A stretch of DNA of 32,000 nt, from assembly GCF_000014265.1 (NCBI RefSeq), contig NC_008312.1, positions 540,001 through 572,000 of the forward strand. Reading direction: 5' to 3'. The notes beneath the pieces were generated by a model, which made no database searches, was not told the origin of the DNA, and was given only the letters and a program-made list of their open reading frames with translations. Both the position numbers and the translations under genes were made by a program. Below, piece by piece: positions 11,923 through 27,677 of the stretch (its first letter is position 1; every line of letters begins with the position of its first letter). Source of the DNA: Trichodesmium erythraeum IMS101. GTDB lineage: Bacteria > Cyanobacteriota > Cyanobacteriia > Cyanobacteriales > Microcoleaceae.

Positions 11923-13365
11923 GTGAAAAAAATTAATCGAAGAAAATTTTTCATCCTAAGTTCCAGTGCGATGGCAACTTTAATCACTCAATGTAATATA
12001 AATAATACTCAAAAAAATCAACAACTTATATCATCATACCCTCAAATACATCAGAGCCAAGATGGAATTCTAGAAATTGATTTGACAGCTAATATTAGTC
12101 AAATAAATCTGGGAAATAAACAAGCTTATGTATTAAATTATAACGGACAAATTCCCGGACCAAGATTAGAAGTAAAACCAAGAGATACAATTAGGATTAA
12201 TTTCACTAACAATTTACCCCAACCTACAAATATTCATTATCACGGACTACATATTCCCATGACTGGAAATGCTGATAACGTATTTCTGAATATTTCTCCA
12301 GGCGATCGCTTGACATATCAGTTTCAAATTCCTGAAAATCACCATGCTGGAATGTTTTGGTATCATCCACATCTCCATGGTTTAGTAGCAGAACAAATTT
12401 TTGGGGGGTTAGCTGGATTATTTATTGTCCGTGGAGAGCTCGATGAAATTCCCGAAGTAAAAGCTGCTTCAGAACAATTTTTAGTGTTGCAGGATTTTGC
12501 CCTAGACCAAAAAGGAAATATACTCCCATCTCATGAGCTTTCAATAATGACAGGAAGGCAAGGAAATTTGATCACTGCTAACGGTCAGTCTAACCCTAAA
12601 TTAACCATTCCCCCTCAAAATTTATTAAGAATTCGTATTCTTAATGCTTCAAGTTCCAGATTTTATCGGTTATCTTTAGAAGAACACCCATTTTATTTAA
12701 TAGCTACTGATGGAGGAGCATTAGCTGAACCTGTAGAAATGTCAGAACTATTATTGACTCCTGGAGAACGTGCAGATGTATTAGTCCAAGGTAACCGAGA
12801 GCCAGGAAAATATCGCTTGTTGAATTTACCTTATGAACGAGTGGGTATTGGTATGATGGGGAGAAATGTATCTGAAAGTCAACCACAAGTTTTAGCAACA
12901 GTGAGTTATGACCAACAGTCCACTGCTGTGCCACTGCCAACCAAACTCATCCCTGTCCCAGCATTGCCCGAACCTCAAAAAGTACGTCGTTTTCAGATGA
13001 ACCATGGCATGATACCTGGTCAAGGGATGGCATTTTTGTTTAATGGTCAGCCATATCAACCAGAAAGAATTGATACTCAAGTTCAGCTCAATACCGTTGA
13101 AGACTGGGAATTAATTAACACAGGCATAATGGATCATCCCTTTCATATTCATAGCAATGCTTTTCAAGTTTTGAGTCGGAATGGCAAACCAGAACCCTAT
13201 CGTGCCTGGAAAGATGTAGTCTTAGTCAGACAGGGAGAAACAGTTTTAATTCGGATGCCATTACAAGATTTTGCTGGAAAAACTGTTTATCATTGTCATA
13301 TTCTTGACCACGAAGATTTAGGAATGATAGGAAATTTGGAAATTAAAGCAAGACTTTCTATTTAA
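11923..13365 (+). CDS. Tat-exported three-domain multicopper oxidase (CueO/CotA/laccase-like)
   Basis: 480-aa ORF with a GTG start. It has a twin-arginine signal (NRRKFFILSSSAMA) and all four copper-ligand motifs: HYHGLH, WYHPHLHG, HPFHIHSNAF and HCHILDHEDLGM. Confidence 0.9.
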   Translation: MKKINRRKFFILSSSAMATLITQCNINNTQKNQQLISSYPQIHQSQDGILEIDLTANISQINLGNKQAYVLNYNGQIPGPRLEVKPRDTIRINFTNNLPQPTNIHYHGLHIPMTGNADNVFLNISPGDRLTYQFQIPENHHAGMFWYHPHLHGLVAEQIFGGLAGLFIVRGELDEIPEVKAASEQFLVLQDFALDQKGNILPSHELSIMTGRQGNLITANGQSNPKLTIPPQNLLRIRILNASSSRFYRLSLEEHPFYLIATDGGALAEPVEMSELLLTPGERADVLVQGNREPGKYRLLNLPYERVGIGMMGRNVSESQPQVLATVSYDQQSTAVPLPTKLIPVPALPEPQKVRRFQMNHGMIPGQGMAFLFNGQPYQPERIDTQVQLNTVEDWELINTGIMDHPFHIHSNAFQVLSRNGKPEPYRAWKDVVLVRQGETVLIRMPLQDFAGKTVYHCHILDHEDLGMIGNLEIKARLSI

Positions 13366-13418
13366 CCAGAAAATTTATCATTACAATAGAGTACTATAGA
13401 TTATTTAAGGTAATAATT

Positions 13419-13976
13419 ATGAAAAAAGTTTTCTCTAATTGGATAAAGTCTTTAATTGCTGGTGTTGCAGTTGCTGGAGTTTTAGGGGCAACATATTGGT
13501 ATTTTGTCGGTTTACCAGAAAATCCTACCTTGAGTACAAAAACTCAGACTGTTCTTAACTCTAGTTTATCTACCACAGACTTAGCACCACCAGTCCTTAA
13601 TGTCACTGTCTACCGTACTCCTACTTGCGGATGTTGTAAGGGTTGGGTGGAACATATCAAGCAAAATGGCTTTCAAATAACTGATATTGTCAAACCTGAG
13701 TCAGAAATTAAAACTATTCGCCAGAAATATAATTTACCCTCAGATTTAACATCTTGTCATACCAGTGAAATTGCTGGCTATCTTGTAGAAGGTCATGTTC
13801 CCGTGGCAGATGTCAAAAGTTTAATCGCCCAGAAACCAGATGTTGCTGGAATTAGCGTTCCTGGAATGCCCATTGGTACTCCTGGCATGGAAATGGGCGA
13901 TCGCAAACAATCTTTTGATGTATTTACCTTTGAAAAAGATGGTCAGACTAAAGTTTTTAATTCCTATAAATTCTAG
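13419..13976 (+). CDS. DUF411 (CopG-like) metal-binding protein with an N-terminal membrane anchor/signal
   Basis: 185-aa ORF, 53 nt downstream of the oxidase. It carries the DUF411 hallmarks YRTPTCGCCKGW and SVPGMPIGTPGMEMG. Confidence 0.85.
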   Translation: MKKVFSNWIKSLIAGVAVAGVLGATYWYFVGLPENPTLSTKTQTVLNSSLSTTDLAPPVLNVTVYRTPTCGCCKGWVEHIKQNGFQITDIVKPESEIKTIRQKYNLPSDLTSCHTSEIAGYLVEGHVPVADVKSLIAQKPDVAGISVPGMPIGTPGMEMGDRKQSFDVFTFEKDGQTKVFNSYKF

Positions 13977-15241: not shown

Positions 15242-15889
15242 CTATTGATGAGCGATCGCTAAGTCTACTTGCTTCAACAAAGCTTCTAAGGTAGAGGAAT
15301 TATCCACAACAATATCCCCCTTTTGACATTTTTCTGATAGGGACATCTGATTATTAATTCGAGTGTAAGCTTGTTCTTGAGTCAAACAGTCACGTTTCAT
15401 TAATCTCTCTATTTGTTGTTGGAATGGAGCATATATAACCCAAATTTCTGTTACTAAGTCAGTCATCTTAGCTTCAAATAACAATGGTATTACTAATACC
15501 GCTGTAACATCTTGAGAAGTAATTTTATGGGATGTTACCTGTATATAATTTGTCTGCTCAAATTCACTATTTTTGGCAATAAAATACTTAATATTCTGCT
15601 CAAAGCGATCGCGGACATAAGGATGAATTTGTTTTTGTAACCAGAGTAACTCTTTTTGATCATTAAAAACAATCTCTCCTAATTGTCGTCTATCTAAATT
15701 ACCATTAGGTAAGACAATATTTTGACCGTAGTGTTCTACTATGCTCTTTAAAATTGATGAACCAGGTTTTACAGCTTCTCGCCCATAAACATCCGCATCC
15801 CAAATTGGAAACTGATAGTTTTTACTCAAATAATTAGAGACAGTAGTTTTTCCTGTGCTAATACCACCAGTTAAACCAATTAAGCGCAT
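15242..15889 (-). CDS. coaE: Dephospho-CoA kinase
   Basis: 215-aa ORF with the P-loop IGLTGGISTGKTTV at the N-terminus, then IWDADVYGREAV, and VIPLLFEAKM...VIYAP...QIERLMKRD, all typical of CoaE. Confidence 0.9.
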   Translation of the reverse strand: MRLIGLTGGISTGKTTVSNYLSKNYQFPIWDADVYGREAVKPGSSILKSIVEHYGQNIVLPNGNLDRRQLGEIVFNDQKELLWLQKQIHPYVRDRFEQNIKYFIAKNSEFEQTNYIQVTSHKITSQDVTAVLVIPLLFEAKMTDLVTEIWVIYAPFQQQIERLMKRDCLTQEQAYTRINNQMSLSEKCQKGDIVVDNSSTLEALLKQVDLAIAHQ

Positions 15890-16287: not shown

Positions 16288-19200
16288 ATGAACTATGCAC
16301 CCTTTGATAAAATTTACAAAATACTCATAGCTATCCCCTTAACTGGACTTTGGGTATTTGATATTGCTACACTCTTACCATTCAAAAACAGCAAAAATAA
16401 TGCTAAACTCGGAATAATATCACGGGAATTATTTTCCCCTAAAACCACATTAGCTCAACCATCGACTGAACCAATAGTTCCTGAAGCCAACTCAACAAAC
16501 ACAGTAGTAACTCCAGTAACACCATCAAACAATTCTTCCCAAACTCGCTTCGATATTACAGGTGGAAAGTATTCGGAAGATAATGCTAATCTTTTCCATA
16601 GCCTTACTAAATTTAATCTGGGAGAAAAACAAATTGTTAATTTTATATCTAACCCCAATATCAGAAATATTTTAACTCGTGTTACAGGTGGAAATATTTC
16701 TATAATTAATGGTTTAATTCAGGTAACAGGGGGAAATTCTAACTTATTTATTATGAACCCTGCTGGTATTATTTTTGGTCCAAATTCTAGATTAGATGTA
16801 CCTGGATCTTTTGTTGTAACGACTGGTTTAAGTATTGGTTTTGATGATGGTTTGTTTAATTCTACTGGTGAAAATAACTACGATATTTTAACAGGAAATC
16901 CCAGTATTTTTTCCTTTCCTATAAATAATTCGGGAGTAATAATAAATGAAGGTGAATTCACTGTTAAAGCAGGAGAAAGTGTAGTTTTATTGGGTGGAAC
17001 AATTATTAACACAGGTAAAATATCTGCACCTGGTGGTGAAATTACAATTTCTGCAGTCCCTGGAAAAAATTTAGTCCGCATTAGTCAAGAAGGACGTTTA
17101 TTAAGTTTAGAAATACCAACGGAAAGTGAAGAAAACTCAAGCACAAATTCTGCCCAAGAATTAAAAACGTTCAATTACTTATCAATACCAGAACTTTTAA
17201 CTGGTAAAAGTGAAGCTATAGAAACAGCTACTGGAGTAATAGTTAATGATGATAATCAAATAGTTTTGGTAGGTTCTAATCAAGTAATTCCTACAGATTT
17301 AGGTACAACTATTGTCTCTGGATTCCTGGATGTTTCTTCAGCAGAAAAATTGGAATTTGCAAACACAGGTAGAATCAATATTTTTGGAGAAAAAGTAGGA
17401 TTATTTGATGCCAAGCTGAATGCTGGTGGTATTTATGGGAGTGGAAGTATTCAAATTGGTGGAGATTTTTCAGGTGTAGTAAATATTCCTAATGCTACTC
17501 GTACTTATGTCGATGAAAAAACAAAAATATTTACTACATCTTCTTTAGGTGAGGCAGGTAATGTCATTATTTCGAGTGCAGAAGAAACTATATTTTTGGG
17601 TAAAATAGAAGCTATTAGTGATGCCACAGAAGAGTCTATAGCGGAAGAAAAAAACTCTAGCAAAAATATAGTAGAAGTTTCTAGTCAAGGAACTTTAATT
17701 TTTGATGGTACTATTAATTTAGGTTCTCCAAATACTTTAGGAAATTTATCCTTAAAGTCGGAAAATATTAATATTGTAGATGGAAATATTGCTCTAGAAG
17801 ATAATCCTTTAACTGGAGAAGCAGAAACAGAATCTCAGATTGCTAAGTCATCTATAGAAACTATATCAAATACAAATATTAGGATTGAAGCATCAGATAA
17901 TATAACTATTAATAATTTATCTGAAGCTGAGTTAAACTTTTCAAATGTCAGAGGTAAAATATCATTTATAGCAGATAGTGACAAAAATAATTTCGGGTCA
18001 TTTAGAATAGATTCAGAAAATACTATTAATACTCAAGGAGCAGAAATTAGTATTTCTGGAAAAACAATAAATACAGATAATATTAATACAAAAGGAGGAA
18101 AAATAAGTCTGAGTAGTAGTCAAGGTTTTGTTATGACTAATAACTTATCTACTAGCAACTCCAATACAACAGTAAAAACTAATGGAGGAGATATAGATAT
18201 TAATGCTCAGGGAAATATTACTACAGGAGAAATTAATTCTAGTGGAGAGTCCAGTGGTGGAAATATTAATATCAATAGTCAAACAGGTAGCATTAAAATT
18301 ACAAGAGTAAATATAGATACTACTTCTTCAAATGGCCGGGGTGGAAATGTCAGAATGAATGCTGCTACTAATATTGACATAGAAAATATTAACGCTGAAG
18401 GTAAACAAAGTGGTGGAAATATTGAACTGAGATCTGAAGACACTCTCAACCTTAGGGTAATATCAACCTTAAGTGATAGCAGAGAAACTGGCAACATTTC
18501 TATTATTGGAAACGAAATCAACCTTTTAGGTGGAGAAAATAGCATTAGTAGCAATGGAAAACTGAACTTACACTCAGCATCAGAAAATCACAATATTACT
18601 CTGGGCGGTTTTCAAAATACAGCAGCACTTAACCTCAAAACATCAGACTTAGCAACTTTTGCAAATGGTTTTACATCTATTACCATTGGCAAATCAGAAA
18701 ATTCTGGTACTATTACTATATATTCTCCAGAAAAAAGTAACAACAATGGAGTCATATTTCGCGATCCGGTGACTCTTCAAGGAGAAAAAGTTACAGGTCA
18801 AGGTAAAATAACCGGAATAGATGATGCTAAAATTACGATAAATGCTAAAGGTGACATTCTTACTGGCAATATTTCTGTGCCTGGAGACATTAGTCTTCGA
18901 AGCACTCAAGGAAATATCAAGACTGGGAACATGGCTGTAAATATATCAGAAAATAGCATTGGTAACATTGATATTGTTACTGGTGGTGCTATAGAAACAG
19001 GGAAATTAACCACTACAGGAACAACAGCCGGAGGAAATATAAATCTCCAGGCAGGCGCTCACTTAACTACAGGTATAATAAATTCTAGTGCGACACCAGG
19101 AAATGCTGGAAAAATTCAACTGAGTGCGGAAAATGATATTGAAATTATCTCAATACAAGCAGAAGGTGGAAATATTGGAGGTAATGTAGAAATTAGTACG

Positions 19201-21606
19201 AGAGATGCTTTGAGAATAGCAGGTACTTTTTTAAATCAAAATCAGGAGCTGGTTAGCATTTCTACCGCCGGAGAATTAGCAGGGGGGAATATTAATATCA
19301 GCACAGGGAAAACACCTTTTACTGTAGGAGATATTACGACTAACGGTTCTGTAGGAGCAATTACAGATGGAAACCTGATAATTTCACCAGATCGTTCTCT
19401 ACCCAATAAGTTTAATCTCATTGATATCCAAAAGAGGGAAAACTCTCAACTACAGGATAATAACTCTAGTGAAACTCAAAAAGAAACAGAGTTACAGACT
19501 CAAAAAAGTCCACTCCAGCCAGACTCAACCGCGGATAGCAGTTCTAATAAAGATAACCAAGCTTCTGTAGTTACTCAAACTAAGTCTAGTAATTCTAAGG
19601 AAGAAAATCAAACCAGTGTAGTGACTCAACAAGAATTAGTTGAGCCATCAGACAATATTAAGATAGATCAGGTAGAAAAAACTCAAAGTTCTATTGAGGA
19701 AAATAATAAACCATCCTTAAACACAAACCAAGAAGTACAGACAGTATCTCAAGAACCTGTTTCTATTGAGGAAAATAATCAACCATCCTTAAGCACAAAC
19801 CAAAAAGTACAGACAGTTGAGAAAAATAATCAACCATCCTTAAACACAAACCAAGAAGTACAGACAGTATCTCAAGAACCTGTTTCTATTGAGAAAAATA
19901 ATCAACCATCCTTAAACACAAACCAAGAAGTACAGACAGTATCTCAAAAACCTGAAGCAAGTTCACAACGTTTAGACAGTTCTGAAGTGACTCCCTCTGT
20001 TATAGAAAATGTAGATAATATCAAATTATCAAGAAGCTTAGAAGAGCAAACTTCTCCTCCCCCAGTACTTGTAGTAGAAAATCAAAATACAACCACAATA
20101 GAATTAGAAAAAACTGATAATTTTCCACCTGTTCCAGAATTCTTAGAAAATCAAGAAGCAAAAATTATTGTGGAGGATATCGAATATAGTGAAACTCCAG
20201 CAGCTTCTAATAAAATTTTAGAGGATACCACCTCTAGTTTAAATTCAGCAGTTTCAAATCAAACAGTTGCTATAGAAAATCCTGCTCAAGGTAATTTTTC
20301 CCAGAAACCAACTCCAACGATAGTTGTAGAAGAAAATATTACAACTACTGCTTCAGAAATTTCTCCCAAGAATAATTTCCATCAAATTAGTTTAACAGAT
20401 ACCATATCTCAGATAGAGCTAACCAGACGCAGAGAATTTACTAATTATTTAGGAAAAAACATTTCTAAGAGAACTGCTACAGCAACAAATATCCGCAATA
20501 CTCTCAGCAGTGTTGCCAAAATAGATATCAGACCAGCAATGATATACGTCTCCCCACAACCCAATTATTTAGAACTACAATTGTTTTTGCCCAATGGTAA
20601 ACCAGTTGTTAAAAGCATTAAAAAAAATAGAGATGAGGTAATTGAGGTTGCAAAAAAATTCACTAACCAAATTAGAACTCCTCGTCAATTAGATTCTCAC
20701 AGCTATTTATCAAATGCTAAAAAATTATATAAATGGTTGATTGCGCCAATATCTCAAGAATTGGTAGCTTATAATATTAACATGATCGTTTTTTCAATGG
20801 ATAGTGGTTTGAGAACTATTCCCATAGCAGCTTTACATGATGGTCAACAATTCCTAGTAGAAAAATATAGTTTGGGTTTAATCCCTAGTTTTACTTTAAC
20901 AGATACAAGATATTTGGGATTAGATGGTTCTCAAGTTTTAGCAATGGGAGCATCTAAGTTTTCTCCTAATACCAATGAAACTCCTCTACCTGGAGTACTT
21001 GTAGAACTTAAAGCTATTGTGAATAATCTTTGGCCGGGTAAGTATTTTTTGAATCAAGAATTTACTCTAGATAACTTGAAGTATGAACGCCGAAAAGAAA
21101 AATTCAAAATTATTCACTTAGCTACTCATGTAGAATTTCATCCAGGGGGTGCTGATAATTCTTATATTCAATTTTGGGATACTAAGCTACCCTTAAATGA
21201 ATTACGACAGTTACGTTTGCATCGCCCCCAAATTGAATTATTGGTATTGAGTGCTTGTACTACTGCAGTGGGAGATGAAGATGTTGAATTAGGTTTTGCA
21301 GGTTTGGCAGTGCAAGCAGGAGTCAAGTCGGCTTTGGCAAGTCTTTGGTATGTTAGCGATGCTGGTACATTAGCTTTGATGACTGAGTTTTATCAACATT
21401 TATCAAAAAGACCTATTAAAGCAGAAGCATTACGAAAAGCTCAATTGGCAATGTTAAGGGGAGATTTGCATTTACAAGATGGTCATATACTCCGAAATGG
21501 TAATCAGGGTCTCCCTTTACCACCGGAGTTAGCCATAGGAGGTAGGAGAGATTTATCTCACCCTTATTATTGGGCATCATTTACCATGATAGGTTCACCG
21601 TGGTAA
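16288..21606 (+). CDS. Giant exoprotein: N-terminal TPS (haemagglutination-activity) secretion domain, beta-helix repeats, low-complexity linker and C-terminal CHAT protease domain
   Basis: 1772-aa ORF. TPS motifs are [62 protein letters not shown] (about nt 16465-17112). Many GGNI(N/E)I-type repeats occupy about nt 17125-19400. A Q/N/S/T/E-rich linker spans about 19430-20400. The CHAT region spans about 20404-21603, with [10 protein letters not shown] (His) and [11 protein letters not shown] (Cys). Confidence 0.9.
   Translation: [1772 protein letters not shown]
19693..19953 (+). repeat. In-frame 72-bp tandem repeat (about 3.7 copies) inside the giant gene's linker
   Basis: The copies are 19693-19764, 19765-19818 (short, 54 nt), 19819-19887 and 19888-19953. 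They encode IE(E/K)NN(K/Q)PSL(N/S)TNQ(E/K)VQTV(SQEPVS). The last two copies are almost identical at the DNA level. Confidence 0.9.
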
Positions 21607-22067
21607 GAGGATTTTGTTTCAGGGGTTATTGAAAAAAAGTTTCTACCTTTAAGCAAAAATACCAAATTGATAGCTGGCAAGACCCAGGCTTAAAATATAG
21701 GTAAGTATTCAATAGATGGGGAAATGGGATATATTGAAGTATTTTTTTACCTTTTTTCTGTATTGCTTCTTTTCATAGATGACTCTGTGACTCAAAAATT
21801 TAATTGCGGGTACTGTCGGTATACTATCAAGATTTAAACGTTAATCAATATTTGGAGTTCCTTATATAACTAAAGTAGAGGGTAAAAACACTTGTTTAAG
21901 AATTTATTTAGCAATATTAGAACGAAAAACGATTAGTTACTTGCACATTCCTTAAAAATGCTTAAGTATTCCATTTTCTTACTACTATACTACTTAAAAT
22001 TTAAGACTGTGCCAATTCCTACAATCATTATTACACATTGACCAAAGCCAAATATATTACCATTACT

Positions 22068-22235
22068 ATGCAAGACTACAAAAAAATTTTCTTGATTGGA
22101 ATAGTTTGTTTGATCCCTCTGTTTTTATGGGGAATGAATATAATTTTAGCCAGAGGTTATTTAGGCTCAGTAATGTTGGATATTTATGAGAGCGATCGGG
22201 ATGCCTCAGCTATTTTTTGGACAGATGTAGAGTAG
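22068..22235 (+). CDS. Possible small membrane protein (55 aa from the ATG; the track ORF starts at a TTG at 22038)
   Basis: MQDYKKIFLIGIVCLIPLFLWGMNIILARGYLGSVMLDIYESDRDASAIFWTDVE has one clear TM helix and an acidic tail. I recognise no family, so it could be spurious. Confidence 0.3.
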   Translation: MQDYKKIFLIGIVCLIPLFLWGMNIILARGYLGSVMLDIYESDRDASAIFWTDVE

Positions 22236-23583: not shown

Positions 23584-24342
23584 ATGATCTCTCTAAATAA
23601 ACTGGGTGTGACTTACCCAAATGGCACAGAAGCTTTACACAACATTTCTATTGAATTGAATCAAGGAGAATTCACTGTAATTTTAGGGTCTTCTGGAGCT
23701 GGAAAATCTACTCTCTTACGCTGTATAAACTTTCTTACTTATCCTACCAGTGGAAAAGTCATTATTGAAGGTAATGGTGATTTAAATCACCCTAAAATAT
23801 TACAAAAACATCGTCAAAGGACAGGAATGATTTTTCAACAACATCAATTAATTCCTCGGCAAACTGCTCTCAAAAATGTTCTAGTAGGTCGTTTAGGTTA
23901 TCATTCTACCCTGAGAAGTTTATTTCCTCTTCCTAAAACAGATCAGTATATTGCCTTAAATTGTTTAGAAAGAGTAGGTTTATTAGAAAAGGCTTTAACA
24001 CCTGTTCAAGCTTTAAGTGGTGGACAACAACAACGAGTAGGAATTGCTCGTGCTTTAGCCCAAAAACCTAAATTTATCTTAGCCGATGAACCCATCGCCA
24101 GTTTAGATCCTGCTAGCTCTCATCAAGTTTTATCTAATTTACAAAAGATTTGTCAAGAAGATAGAATTGGGGCTTTAATTAGTTTACATCAAGTTGATTT
24201 AGCTTTACAATATGCCCAGCGTATTATTGGATTAGGTAAAGGGACAATTCTCTTTGATTGTAATCCTTCAGAGATCAAAAAACAGCAACTTGAAGAAATT
24301 TATCAAACTCTATCCTATAATCCTATAAGTAAGACTATATAA
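23584..24342 (+). CDS. ptxA: Phosphite/phosphonate ABC transporter ATP-binding protein (PhnC family)
   Basis: 252-aa ORF with Walker [11 protein letters not shown]-loop, signature [15 protein letters not shown], Walker B FILADEP and an H-loop (SLHQV). The ptx assignment comes from the context of the downstream PtxD. Confidence 0.85.
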
Positions 24343-24790
24343 CTATATACATATTGTCCGTCATACAATACAGTTCAATCAACGATTTTTTGCACTTCTG
24401 TAATCTGAACAGCTTATTTGTATATACTAAAAGTTTTATACTATAATAGTATTGGTATTATCTAGACTATATTAATTAAAATAAATGTACTAGAAAAAAA
24501 AAGCTTAGTAAAGTTAAACTGTCGCAAACCCATTTCCAAATAATTATTTATAAGGTCTGCTCGTCTTCAAAACTGAAGATGACACTTTCACCTCATCTAG
24601 CTCCTATCCTAAACTTCCCTTGTTATAGGCACATATTTTAAACTTTATCTCAGATCTAATGAGTTCACATTAGTTGACTGTTTGAGGTAATTGACAATTT
24701 TAGAGTCATAGTAATATTGATGCAATAGTTGTTTGTTTTTGTATGTGTTTCACCGCCTTTAGCTAATTAATTTTTCAGGACATAAAGATT

Positions 24791-25687
24791 ATGTTAGGTT
24801 TAATCCTCAAAAAAAATTTGTTTACAGTGCTTTTTTTGGCTTGCTTAAGTTTAGTTAGTTGTAGTAATTCTAATATTCAAAAATCAGAGAACAAAGCTAA
24901 TCCTCAAAAATTAGTTGTTGCTTTATTGCCAGATGAATCTGCTGCTACTGTTATTCAGAATAATAAAGGACTTGAGATGTACCTAGAAAATAAGCTAAAT
25001 AAAGATATTGAATTATTTGTTAGCACTGACTATTCTTCTATGATTGAAGTAGCTAGTAAAGGACGTTTAGATTTAGCTTATTTTGGTCCCTTATCTTACG
25101 TTTTAGCGAAAACTAAAAGTAATATTGAACCCTTTGCTGCTTTAGAAAAAGATGGAAAAAATACTTATCAAGCTCTAGTTATTGGTAATGCAGAAGCAGG
25201 AATTAATTCCTATGAAAAAATAGAAGGAAAAATCATGGCCTATGGCGATCAAGCTTCTACTTCTAGTCACTTAATTCCTAAGTCAATGTTAAAGCAAAAA
25301 CAATTAAAAGCTGGGGAAAATTATGAAGAAGTTTTTGTGGGTGCCCATGATGCTGTTGCTATTGCTGTTGCCAATGGTAAAGCGCAAGCTGGAGGGTTGA
25401 GTAAACCCATTTTTACTGCCTTAATTGAAAGGGGAACAATTGATAAAAATAAGGTAATTATTATTGCTGAATCTAAACCTTTTCCTCAGTATCCTTGGAC
25501 AATGCGCTCTGATTTAGATTCTGAACTTAAAACACAAATTCAACAGGCATTTTTAGAGTTGGAAGATAAGGCAATACTAAAACCATTTAAAGCAGATGCT
25601 TTTACATTAGTTACAGATCAAGATTATGATGTGGTTAGAAACTTAGGAGAAGTGCTAGAGCTTAATTTTGAACAATTGAATAAATAA
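24791..25687 (+). CDS. ptxB: Periplasmic phosphite-binding lipoprotein (PhnD family)
   Basis: 298-aa ORF with a lipoprotein signal and lipobox (LSLVSC). PhnD-family features include VVALLPDES, DLAYFGPLSYV, YGDQASTSSHLIP and YPWTMRSDL. Confidence 0.85.
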   Translation: MLGLILKKNLFTVLFLACLSLVSCSNSNIQKSENKANPQKLVVALLPDESAATVIQNNKGLEMYLENKLNKDIELFVSTDYSSMIEVASKGRLDLAYFGPLSYVLAKTKSNIEPFAALEKDGKNTYQALVIGNAEAGINSYEKIEGKIMAYGDQASTSSHLIPKSMLKQKQLKAGENYEEVFVGAHDAVAIAVANGKAQAGGLSKPIFTALIERGTIDKNKVIIIAESKPFPQYPWTMRSDLDSELKTQIQQAFLELEDKAILKPFKADAFTLVTDQDYDVVRNLGEVLELNFEQLNK

Positions 25688-25734
25688 GAGACTAAACCTC
25701 AGAAAAATTAGTCAATCTTATTTAAAAATTATCC

Positions 25735-26562
25735 TTGAAAGATATGAAAGTTACTCCTAAAATTACGCCCAATAAGTTTGATACTTTACTCCGTCAACAA
25801 CAAAGAAGTTGGTATATTTTTTTGACTAAAACATTGATATTATTAGGTATTATTTTAGTCAGCTTTGGGACTGTAGGATTATTGGATGGACAACGATTAT
25901 CTGAGGGTATTCCTGATTTAATTGGGATGGTTGGAGAAATGTTACCGCCAGATTTTAGTCGCGCTTTAGACTGGATTAAACCTTTAATTGATACTATTGC
26001 TATGAGTATTGCAGGTACAGGTATGGCTATTGCTCTTTCTATTCCTCTTTCTTTGGGAGCTGCTCGCAATACTACTCCTCATCCTGTTGTTTATTTTCTC
26101 TCAAGAATGATTCTGAATATAGCTAGGGCAATTCCTGAATTAATTTTAGGAATAATTTTTGTTGCAGCAGTTGGATTTGGCACACTTCCTGGGGTATTAG
26201 CATTAGGATTTCATTCAATTGGTATGGTGGGAAAATTTTTGGCTGAAGCTATAGAACATACGGATAATTCTCCTATTGAAGCTGCAAAATCTGCCGGAGC
26301 TAATCATTTACAAATTATTTTTCATGGCATTTTTCCTCAAATTTTTCCTCAAATTGCTGACCTAACTTTTTACCGTTGGGAATACAATTTTCGAGCCTCA
26401 ATGGTATTAGGTGCTGTAGGAGCTGGCGGCATTGGGTTTGAAATTATTGGAGCCCTACGTTTACTAAAATATGAGGAAGTTTCTGCACTATTACTGGTCG
26501 TGTTAATAATGGTTACTTTAGTTGATAGTTTAAGTAACTATTTGCGTCAAAAGTTTATTTAA
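25735..26562 (+). CDS. ptxC: Phosphite/phosphonate ABC transporter permease (PhnE family)
   Basis: The track ORF starts at TTG 25735, and an ATG at 25744 is an equally plausible start. It is a multi-TM protein with a PhnE-type EAA-like loop (EAIEHTDNSPIEAAKSAGANHLQIIFHGIFPQ). Confidence 0.85.
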   Translation: MKDMKVTPKITPNKFDTLLRQQQRSWYIFLTKTLILLGIILVSFGTVGLLDGQRLSEGIPDLIGMVGEMLPPDFSRALDWIKPLIDTIAMSIAGTGMAIALSIPLSLGAARNTTPHPVVYFLSRMILNIARAIPELILGIIFVAAVGFGTLPGVLALGFHSIGMVGKFLAEAIEHTDNSPIEAAKSAGANHLQIIFHGIFPQIFPQIADLTFYRWEYNFRASMVLGAVGAGGIGFEIIGALRLLKYEEVSALLLVVLIMVTLVDSLSNYLRQKFI

Positions 26563-26681
26563 AGCTTTAAGTAAGTAGTTCAAGTATCTAGTTTTTTCTA
26601 CTGGGGAGAAGGAAATATAATTTATTTCAATATATTCCCTACTTCCCACTATCTACTCCCTTAATTTCTCAGGTATTCAAT

Positions 26682-27677
26682 ATGGATAAAAAACCATTAG
26701 TTGTTATTACCCATTGGATTCATTCTCAAGTTATTGATTATTTAAGTAAAACTTGTGAAGTTATTCTCAATCAAACTCAATACACATTGTCTCGTGAAGA
26801 AATTATCAATCGAACAAAAGAAGCTGAAGGTCTAATGGTATTTATGCCTGACTTTATTGAATCAAGTTTCTTAGATGCTTGTCCTCAATTAAAAGTTATT
26901 GCAGGAGCTTTAAGAGGGTATGATAATTTTGATATAGATGCTTGTACAAAACGAGGTATTTGGTTCACAATTGTTCCCGACTTATTAGCAGCACCCACAG
27001 CGGAATTAACTGTTGGATTATTATTGGGATTAGCTCGTCGAATGTTAGAAGGCGATCGCCTAATTCGTGATGGTCAATTTCAAGGATGGAAACCAAAACT
27101 TTACAGTAGAGGATTATTACATCAAAATCTAGGAATTGTAGGGATGGGAAAATTAGGAAAAGCTTTAGCCCAAAGATTGGTAGGTTTTAACATGAATTTA
27201 TTCTACAGTGATTCTATTCCCTTATCTGTAGAACAAGAAACTGCTTGGAAAATTTCTAGAGTTTCTTTAGAAGAACTCTTAAAGATTAGTGATTATGTAG
27301 TTTTAATGGTACCATTAATTCCTGATACCTATCATCTTATTAATCAAGATACCTTAGCCAAGATGAAACCAAAAAGTTTCCTGATCAATGCCTGTCGGGG
27401 ATCAGTTGTAGATGAGAAAGCGATCGGGTCAGCAATTCAATCAGGACATTTAGCTGGATATGCTGCTGATGTCTTTGAGATGGAAGATAGGGCTATCCCT
27501 CATCGCCCTCAAGGGATTTACAATACATTAATAACTGAAAAAAATAAGACTTTTTTGACTCCTCATCTGGGTTCTGCTGTTGATGAAATTCGCCATGATA
27601 TTTCTTTTGAAGCAGCCAAAAATATTGTGCAAGTTTTATCAGGAGAAATTCCTCAAGGAGCTGTTAACAAGCTATAA
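26682..27677 (+). CDS. ptxD: NAD-dependent phosphite dehydrogenase (D-2-hydroxyacid dehydrogenase family)
   Basis: 331-aa ORF, collinear with Pseudomonas stutzeri PtxD as I remember it. Shared segments include [71 protein letters not shown] (GxGxxG), [19 protein letters not shown] and TPHLGSAV. Confidence 0.9.

Follow-up and report, generated by a model that had tools for sequence, protein, structure and literature searches.

The window analysed here is a 32,000-nucleotide stretch of the Trichodesmium erythraeum IMS101 genome (contig NC_008312.1, positions 540,001 to 572,000). Its forward strand holds a complete gene (positions 16288-21606 of the window; ATG start, 1772 residues plus stop codon, from the list of open reading frames, ORFs, and its translation) for a protein that joins an N-terminal two-partner secretion (TPS) domain to a C-terminal CHAT domain. 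This TPS-CHAT protein is probably a TpsA-type (type Vb) exoprotein of a large cyanobacteria-specific family, which would act as an extracytoplasmic CHAT endopeptidase and whose transporter, TpsB, would be encoded at another place in the genome. Nearly all that is understood of two-partner secretion comes from proteobacterial adhesins, cytolysins and contact-dependent inhibition (CDI) toxins; here, the route would carry a predicted caspase-fold protease. The novelty lies at the family level, in that TpsB, DUF928 and TPS-CHAT genes are linked, and this family-level picture gives the analysis its value more than the window locus itself, which is an ordinary orthologue.

Overall architecture of the TPS-CHAT protein

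All features of the protein lie on the forward strand and are given in window coordinates. The start codon is backed by the homologues, in which the N-terminus is conserved from Met1. An identical protein (P0001) is encoded on a Tara Oceans contig that the window matches exactly, and the closest named homologue is P0002, a protein from a Trichodesmium metagenome-assembled genome (MAG), with 95% identity. To follow conservation by region, we aligned 115 full-length homologues and calculated the identity to the query for each block of 50 residues.

The protein begins with a leader of 56 residues (16288-16455), defined by the conservation of the homologue N-termini and by hydropathy. A single hydrophobic segment (residues 9-31) is followed by a polar spacer and by a conserved A-x-A/Q-P site near residue 56, the slash marking the presumed cut. 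This leader is probably a long Sec signal or a signal anchor. The TPS domain (residues 70-277, 16495-17118) is matched by Pfam PF05860 with an E value of 9.5e-41, and the NCBIfam model of the haemagglutinin N-terminal domain, TIGR01901, covers residues 103-181, so that the TPS domain stands as the sequence-only reading of this ORF had claimed. Of the two conserved TPS motifs, of the NPNL and NPNGI types, the protein has N122-P-N-I and N157-P-A-G-I; in the 115 homologues, the latter is invariant or close to it. Compared with known structures, the homologue profile matches EtpA (8vba, E = 6e-37) and HMW1 (2odl, E = 3.4e-19).

The TPS domain leads into a beta-helix shaft of degenerate GGNI-type coils, which extends to about residue 1040 (17119-19407) and was delimited with an AlphaFold2 (AF2) model and Foldseek. 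The AF2 model of residues 57-1060 is continuous and consists almost entirely of short strands (pLDDT 85.7, pTM 0.78). Its best Foldseek match is EtpA (8vbb, E = 9.5e-17), and HxuA, HMW1, HpmA and FHA are also matched; the beta-helical nature proposed for these repeats from the letters alone was thereby confirmed. The identity to the query is 0.55-0.68 in the TPS domain and 0.25-0.49 in the shaft. Taken together, Pfam, NCBIfam, AF2 and Foldseek give the protein the two hallmarks of a TpsA, an N-terminal TPS domain with its motifs and a beta-helical passenger.

Between the shaft and the CHAT module lies a hypervariable linker rich in S, E, N, Q, T and P (residues 1041-1370, 19408-20397), which composition and alignment bear out as the low-complexity segment, rich in Q, N, S, T and E, described earlier. 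It is probably disordered, as judged from its composition, and its identity to the homologues is as low as 0.02-0.20, with gaps of up to 92%. Inside the linker, Tandem Repeats Finder located DNA repeats with periods of 51, 72 and 123 nucleotides and 94-98% matches (19694-19954). They encode copies of IE(E/K)NN(K/Q)PSL(N/S)TNQ(E/K)VQTV(SQEPVS).

The CHAT module and its catalytic dyad

The C-terminal CHAT module (residues 1371-1772, 20398-21603) was delimited by Pfam, AF2, Foldseek and conservation, and is composed of an N-terminal pseudo-protease half and a catalytic half. The Pfam model PF12770 aligns over its positions 4-289 of 289 with residues 1477-1770 (20716-21597) at an E value of 1.4e-67. 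The AF2 model of residues 1351-1772 (pLDDT 81.5, pTM 0.86) retrieves Csx29 as its best Foldseek match (7y9x_B, E = 1.3e-15), followed by separase, DdvA, SAVED-CHAT and caspases. Thus, the CHAT assignment of the sequence-only reading is upheld by both the hidden Markov model (HMM) and the predicted fold. This module also contains the best-conserved part of the protein, since the C-terminal 370 residues show an identity of 0.53-0.91 across the 115 homologues.

The catalytic residues were assigned by codon check and column conservation. His1614 (CAT) and the following Val1615 (GTA) occupy 21127-21132, and Cys1657 (TGT) occupies 21256-21258. Both His1614 and Cys1657 are invariant in 115 of 115 full-length homologues. 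In the AF2 model, His1614 is positioned at the C-terminal end of strand 256-266 and Cys1657 at the end of strand 301-307 (model numbering); these are consecutive core strands, so the predicted placement is that expected of a CHAT dyad. The residue that follows the histidine is different. In the His-Gly motif of clan CD, a small residue, Gly, directly follows the catalytic His, and Gly is found in 108 of the 115 homologues and Ser in six; the window protein and P0002 have Val. Because Val1615 is common to the 95%-identical Trichodesmium MAG protein, it is lineage-specific and not an assembly error. The dyad context had been called intact, which holds for the two codons and for the invariance of His and Cys, although the context is not fully canonical at Val1615.

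When the CHAT region was compared with the sequences of the PDB, as a single sequence and as a profile, no match was returned; the link to Csx29, separase and DdvA comes from the fold search alone. An hhalign comparison of the CHAT profile with an approximate sequence of human caspase-3 gave a match of 0.4% probability, confined to the N-terminal pseudo-protease lobe and of no use for placing the dyad. In summary, conservation and fold prediction present the CHAT domain as a predicted cysteine protease, with a His/Cys dyad that is under strong purifying selection.

Cysteine content and extracytoplasmic signature

Cys1657 is the sole cysteine among the 1772 residues. The homologues that we inspected mostly have the catalytic cysteine alone or together with one closely spaced pair, and a few have one extra cysteine near the N-terminus. 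That the sole cysteine is the catalytic one fits an extracytoplasmic protein. The closest stand-alone CHAT relatives, of 450-540 residues, start with signal-peptide-like segments. As a signature in the sequence, these features would fit a TPS-CHAT protein that works outside the cytoplasm.

Two side observations concern the same relatives. The extra cysteine pair of the homologues sits near the end of the shaft. In Microcoleus, stand-alone CHAT paralogues of 470-525 residues with Sec-type leaders occur at L082:9770-13506 and also in L055, L056, L060, L067, L073 and L079 (L numbers denote the loci compared below); stand-alone CHAT paralogues are followed in eight loci by a conserved ORF of 698 residues without a Pfam match.

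Family size and orthology

Among the candidates scored, 4475 are homologous to the full-length protein at E<=1e-10. The best 120 are nearly all TPS plus CHAT proteins of 1600-2000 residues, and come from Trichodesmium, Okeania, Dapis, Microcoleus, Tychonema, Planktothrix, Limnospira, Lyngbya and Kamptonema. Their database names are "CHAT domain-containing protein", which is the NCBI name, and "filamentous hemagglutinin family protein". By a motif scan, related loci number at least 590 in the GTDB species genomes, and 5062 clusters (50% identity) match the CHAT domain alone at E<=1e-30. CHAT is located at the extreme C-terminus in all 150 of the best 150 cluster matches, in proteins of 443-3633 residues. 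Several genomes have at least three paralogues each. In Oscillatoria princeps, two tandem TPS-CHAT genes (3435 and 1165 residues) and a third CHAT ORF fragment at the contig edge were observed (L032:911-14943).

With a family of this size, already annotated, the TPS-CHAT fusion is not unusual. The statement of the sequence-only reading that no such fusion is known to have an experimentally defined role is supported; we found no paper on this architecture, and a literature search for "CHAT domain" combined with two-partner secretion, or with haemagglutinin and cyanobacteria, returned nothing. Proteins with CHAT and haemagglutination domains are noted in a Trichodesmium preprint, without further detail, as enriched in T. 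thiebautii (10.1101/2022.04.20.488952). The family is thus catalogued and annotated and experimentally unstudied, and the window locus is no rarity. It comprises thousands of members, which belong to bloom formers (Trichodesmium, Planktothrix, Limnospira) and to builders of soil crusts (Microcoleus).

Among the family, the window gene can be traced by its divergent neighbour, coaE (dephospho-CoA kinase; 15242-15889, reverse strand; Pfam CoaE, E = 1.4e-55). We use coaE as an orthology marker and propose no functional partnership. The divergent pairing recurs in 26 loci of Microcoleaceae-type genera, namely Trichodesmium, Dapis, Okeania, Microcoleus, Planktothrix, Lyngbya, Limnospira and Phormidium, with a gap of 31-1205 bp when intact; in L006 the gap is 2976 bp, where the gene call is truncated. 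The CHAT identity to the window protein is highest in these coaE-linked loci, at 56-85%, and paralogues at or below 57% are never found beside coaE. Synteny with coaE together with the highest CHAT identity argues for a vertically inherited orthologue and against a mobile cassette. On the evidence of gene order and sequence, the window gene is an ordinary, vertically inherited, housekeeping-type orthologue of a large cyanobacterial family.

Linkage of TpsB and DUF928 with TPS-CHAT

Across the 32 kb, no window ORF of at least 80 residues has a POTRA or ShlB domain, and this agrees with the earlier statement that no TpsB gene lies nearby. We searched for TpsB with EtpB of enterotoxigenic Escherichia coli (ETEC) as seed, and compared 83 distinct CHAT-centred loci (L002-L083 and the window) with a reach of about 10 kb. 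A TpsB is present within that distance in one of the 83 (L071:11594-13438). ORFs for beta-barrel-like proteins near CHAT genes (430-800 residues, ending in F, W or Y) were considered as TpsB candidates and proved to encode OprB porins, kinases and the like. Among the candidates scored, 2407 are homologous to the TpsB of the L071 type at E<=1e-10; those listed are 53-91% identical, about 55-70% between genera, come from filamentous cyanobacteria and all have POTRA_2 and ShlB domains. None of the best 120 is from Trichodesmium.

The positions of these genes differ between genomes. In Microcoleus sp. POL10_C6, TpsB and the coaE-linked TPS-CHAT gene are on different contigs, and the Microcoleus TpsB gene is preceded by a DUF928 gene and has no TpsA beside it. 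In Coleofasciculus, the gene order is transglutaminase-like, DUF928, DUF928, TpsB and TPS-CHAT. A Nostoc MAG encodes a giant CHAT protein near TpsB. On the Acaryochloris plasmid pREB1, DUF928 is directly upstream of a TPS-CHAT gene, and the TPS loci of this plasmid and of the Nostoc plasmid pCC7120alpha have no adjacent TpsB. In L067, DUF928 abuts a CHAT gene without a TPS domain.

For the reverse comparison, 86 TpsB-centred loci, including 80 metagenome loci (L094-L173), were scanned with purpose-built HMMs. DUF928 is present in 37 of the 86, mostly 66-480 bp upstream of TpsB and as one or two genes (for example, L087:8827-12121, L089:8868-12121 and L091:2699-13267). The other partners are a TPS ORF in 20 loci, a CHAT ORF in 18 and a fused TPS-CHAT in 12. 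Of the 36 loci flanked on each side by at least 5 kb, 25 carry DUF928 or TPS plus CHAT. DUF928 occurs in a single CHAT-centred locus, so its link runs through TpsB. The DUF928 proteins start with a signal peptide and bear, ahead of the folded part, a conserved N-terminal segment with arginines, PPxxGxPxxRExGGTR; in the literature found, DUF928 is mentioned in one paper, briefly.

Identity between the TpsB-linked TPS-CHAT proteins and the window protein is 48-57% over the TPS domain and 45-56% over CHAT. All are members of one family, and the same clade of transporters therefore plausibly serves the window protein. Because members of its own family adjoin a conserved TpsB clade elsewhere, the label "orphan" given to the window gene applies to the local gene order; it marks no anomaly, since an unlinked TpsB is the norm among CHAT loci. 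The distribution of the three genes suggests that TpsB, DUF928 and TPS-CHAT form a dispersed system.

Three further observations were made at the TpsB loci. In Microcoleus and Coleofasciculus, a protein of 563 residues with a transglutaminase core is encoded further upstream of DUF928-TpsB. The full DUF928 motif reads PPxxGxPxxRExGGTR...C...LTALxP...PTFxWYxP. Lastly, L090:4454-7570 encodes a protein of 1038 residues with two consecutive POTRA_2-ShlB units, apparently a tandem-duplicated TpsB.

Proposed function and alternative explanations

In the mechanism that we propose, the window protein would cross the inner membrane through Sec by means of its N-terminal leader. The TPS domain would be recognized by a ShlB/FhaC-type TpsB encoded elsewhere, as the gene linkage in other genomes suggests; the gene of this TpsB usually lies just downstream of that for a secreted DUF928 protein. 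About 1000 residues, with a predicted beta-helical fold, would then form a filament outside the cell, joined to the C-terminal CHAT cysteine protease by a linker that, from its sequence, appears to evolve by repeats and is probably disordered. The whole protein would work outside the cytoplasm, in keeping with its sole, catalytic cysteine and with the Sec-type leaders of the closest stand-alone CHAT paralogues. In the last and weakest step, CHAT, delivered or positioned by the beta-helix, would act in trans as an endopeptidase and cut proteins of the envelope or surface. DUF928 is, speculatively, the leading putative substrate or regulator. The high conservation of CHAT, the existence of secreted paralogues without a passenger and the recurrence of DUF928 with CHAT and TpsB favour substrates in trans over pure self-processing.

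Several points weigh against this proposal. The substrate, the activity in trans and the final location are all inferred. The leader has an atypical layout, in which the hydrophobic segment comes first and a polar spacer of 25 residues follows, and its cleavage is putative. The change from Gly to Val beside the catalytic His could lower or abolish activity in this lineage. The dyad is assigned by column conservation and by its place in the AF2 model, and the sequence profiles reach no solved CHAT structure. Regarding the partners, a TpsB or DUF928 gene of the organism itself was not shown within the scope of the 32-kb window; DUF928 is linked to TpsB and to paralogues, and none was seen beside any coaE-linked orthologue. 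The sole pointer to a TpsB in T. erythraeum is a review that cites Tery_3487 as a TpsA-TpsB fusion (PMC3297439).

The alternative that survives best, which is possible though on balance improbable, keeps CHAT in the periplasm. By analogy, the folded CHAT would be a plug that anchors the exported filament, with the linker running through TpsB, and on a signal it would release or mature the filament by cutting the linker, either in cis or in trans. Such a topology is suggested by FhaB and CdiA, whose C-terminal parts (the prodomain of FhaB and the C-terminal half of CdiA) remain periplasmic, and by the long disordered linker between shaft and CHAT. DdvA, a periplasmic CHAT protein, is proposed to cut its own flexible linker, and surveys of polymorphic toxins take caspase-like domains as releasing peptidases (PMC11506125; PMC3482391). 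However, the closest CHAT relatives include stand-alone Sec-leader proteins of 450-540 residues without a passenger, which makes substrates in trans probable, and the linker is hypervariable, so that no conserved cleavage site is visible. In view of the periplasmic C-termini of FhaB and CdiA and the periplasmic CHAT of DdvA, the protease "at the tip of a surface stalk" that had been envisaged for the window protein is reduced to one of several possible topologies.

It is unlikely that the window protein is mainly a structural filament or adhesin, serving the sheath, gliding or trichome cohesion, with a CHAT domain that is weakened or non-catalytic in this Trichodesmium lineage through the Gly1615Val change. 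The Val in place of a near-universal Gly, common to P0002, would be explained by it, and the best structural relatives of the N-terminal 1000 residues are the adhesins EtpA and HMW1. Moreover, the family occurs only in filamentous cyanobacteria, most of which glide, and a part in gliding or filament formation was proposed in the Beggiatoa genome paper for the haemagglutinin-like exoproteins of Beggiatoa and of filamentous cyanobacteria (PMC1951784). Nevertheless, His and Cys are retained, and six other members have Ser after the catalytic His, which shows that the position tolerates change. The window protein has four changes at near-invariant CHAT columns, a number within the range of other members and hence no excess.

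Delivery of the C-terminal CHAT into neighbouring cells to kill or inhibit non-kin, as by a CdiA-like polymorphic toxin, is very improbable. It would draw on the TpsA architecture with an enzymatic C-terminal domain, on the several paralogues per genome and on the proposal that a caspase-like domain, when it forms the extreme C-terminus of a polymorphic toxin, acts as the toxin (PMC3482391). Yet the C-terminus is the most conserved region and no variable cassette, Pfam found no pre-toxin (VENN-type) domain in the protein, the synteny with coaE is stable in the chromosome across genera and PADLOC found no match. Two small downstream ORFs were considered as immunity genes, one of 65 residues with a hydrophobic segment (22038-22235) and one of 37 residues (21724-21837), and were ruled out, since the relatives do not have them and no downstream ORF is conserved. 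The sequence-only reading had likewise seen no immunity-like ORF nearby and had set the protein apart from CdiA-type toxins, and in both respects it agrees with these results. A Craspase or another defence system with a CHAT effector has no support, as PADLOC gave no match, no gRAMP/Cas7-11 or SAVED/CBASS neighbours were found in the window and the protein has no TPR domain.

Returning to the extracytoplasmic endopeptidase, we put forward tentatively, and with considerable doubt, that TPS-CHAT, a dedicated ShlB-type TpsB and a secreted DUF928 protein constitute an undescribed extracytoplasmic proteolytic system of filamentous cyanobacteria, whose components are scattered in some lineages, that of the window among them. 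A further part of it may be the transglutaminase-like protein whose gene lies upstream in Microcoleus and Coleofasciculus. Through the linkage, what looked like an orphan becomes part of a candidate system of three components. If the proposal is true, a caspase-fold protease would be displayed on or released from the trichome surface and would process DUF928 or other envelope proteins, with possible roles in remodelling of the sheath or surface, filament breakage or cell-to-cell signalling. The connection to cell death in Trichodesmium that had been suggested is not supported, as nothing found here bears on it.

Genomic surroundings

The window has a GC content of about 32%. The TPS-CHAT gene is flanked by 398 bp of noncoding DNA upstream and 888 bp downstream, close to the 400 and 890 bp estimated before. 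Its neighbours are housekeeping genes, which besides coaE encode a multicopper oxidase, a DUF411 protein, a GST-like protein, a SAM methyltransferase, a phosphonate-type ABC transporter and a 2-hydroxyacid dehydrogenase. At 11923-13976, the three-domain multicopper oxidase is followed by the DUF411 protein, likely a copper-handling pair; in Phormidium nigroviride (L002), a multicopper oxidase is also found upstream of the orthologous TPS-CHAT gene. At 23584-27677, genes for an ABC ATPase, a phosphonate-type periplasmic binding protein, a permease and the 2-hydroxyacid dehydrogenase stand in a row. This arrangement resembles the ptxABCD cluster for phosphite uptake and oxidation known from Trichodesmium; for this row, NCBIfam gave sub-threshold dehydrogenase matches only.

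Regarding noncoding elements, no Rfam match was found in the window, and scans for promoters and terminators gave sites no more numerous than in shuffled sequence. A stretch of 73 nucleotides just past the stop codon (21628-21700) is 82-84% identical at the equivalent position in two Dapis genomes (L005 and L006); it matches no Rfam family, and its predicted fold is not stable (z = 0.09).

Comparison with known systems

The window protein has the TPS domain and the long beta-helix shaft in common with EtpA of ETEC (EtpA/EtpB) and HMW1 of Haemophilus influenzae (HMW1/HMW1B). In these two systems, tpsB and a glycosyltransferase gene (EtpC, HMW1C) are in one operon, with etpB adjacent to the adhesin gene, and the adhesins have no protease domain. 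The window protein, in contrast, has a C-terminal CHAT domain, an unlinked TpsB and DUF928 as the recurrent accessory gene of its family. A precedent for a protease as cargo of two-partner secretion is LepA/LepB of Pseudomonas aeruginosa, in which the TpsA is an exoprotease; however, LepA is not known to be a clan CD or CHAT enzyme and is encoded beside its TpsB.

FhaB/FhaC of Bordetella and CdiA/CdiB likewise contain a large TpsA whose C-terminal region has a role of its own, as prodomain or toxin. They show no sequence similarity to the window protein beyond the TPS domain and the shaft. The C-terminus of CdiA is polymorphic and accompanied by an immunity gene, whereas that of the window protein is conserved and of an enzymatic type, and no FHA-2, VENN or immunity features were found. 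In FhaB and CdiA, this C-terminal region is periplasmic at least transiently (for the FhaB prodomain, PMC4542190).

Regarding the catalytic module, the model of the window protein suggests the same two-lobed CHAT fold as in Csx29 (Craspase, type III-E CRISPR), separase and DdvA, with a query-normalized TM score of 0.61 for Csx29 and Foldseek E values of 3.5e-10 for separase and 1.6e-09 for DdvA. The spacing between His and Cys is 43 residues in the window protein and 45 in DdvA (H862/C907), whose CHAT domain is periplasmic with an intact dyad and provides a precedent for a CHAT working in the periplasm (PMC11506125). This location is akin to that inferred for the window CHAT. Unlike Csx29 and DdvA, the window protein lacks TPR repeats and CRISPR neighbours, and it has neither an anti-sigma domain nor a DdvA-type transmembrane helix. 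It would thus be an extracytoplasmic CHAT protease beside DdvA, whereas the others are known from roles in cytoplasmic defence and in the cell cycle.

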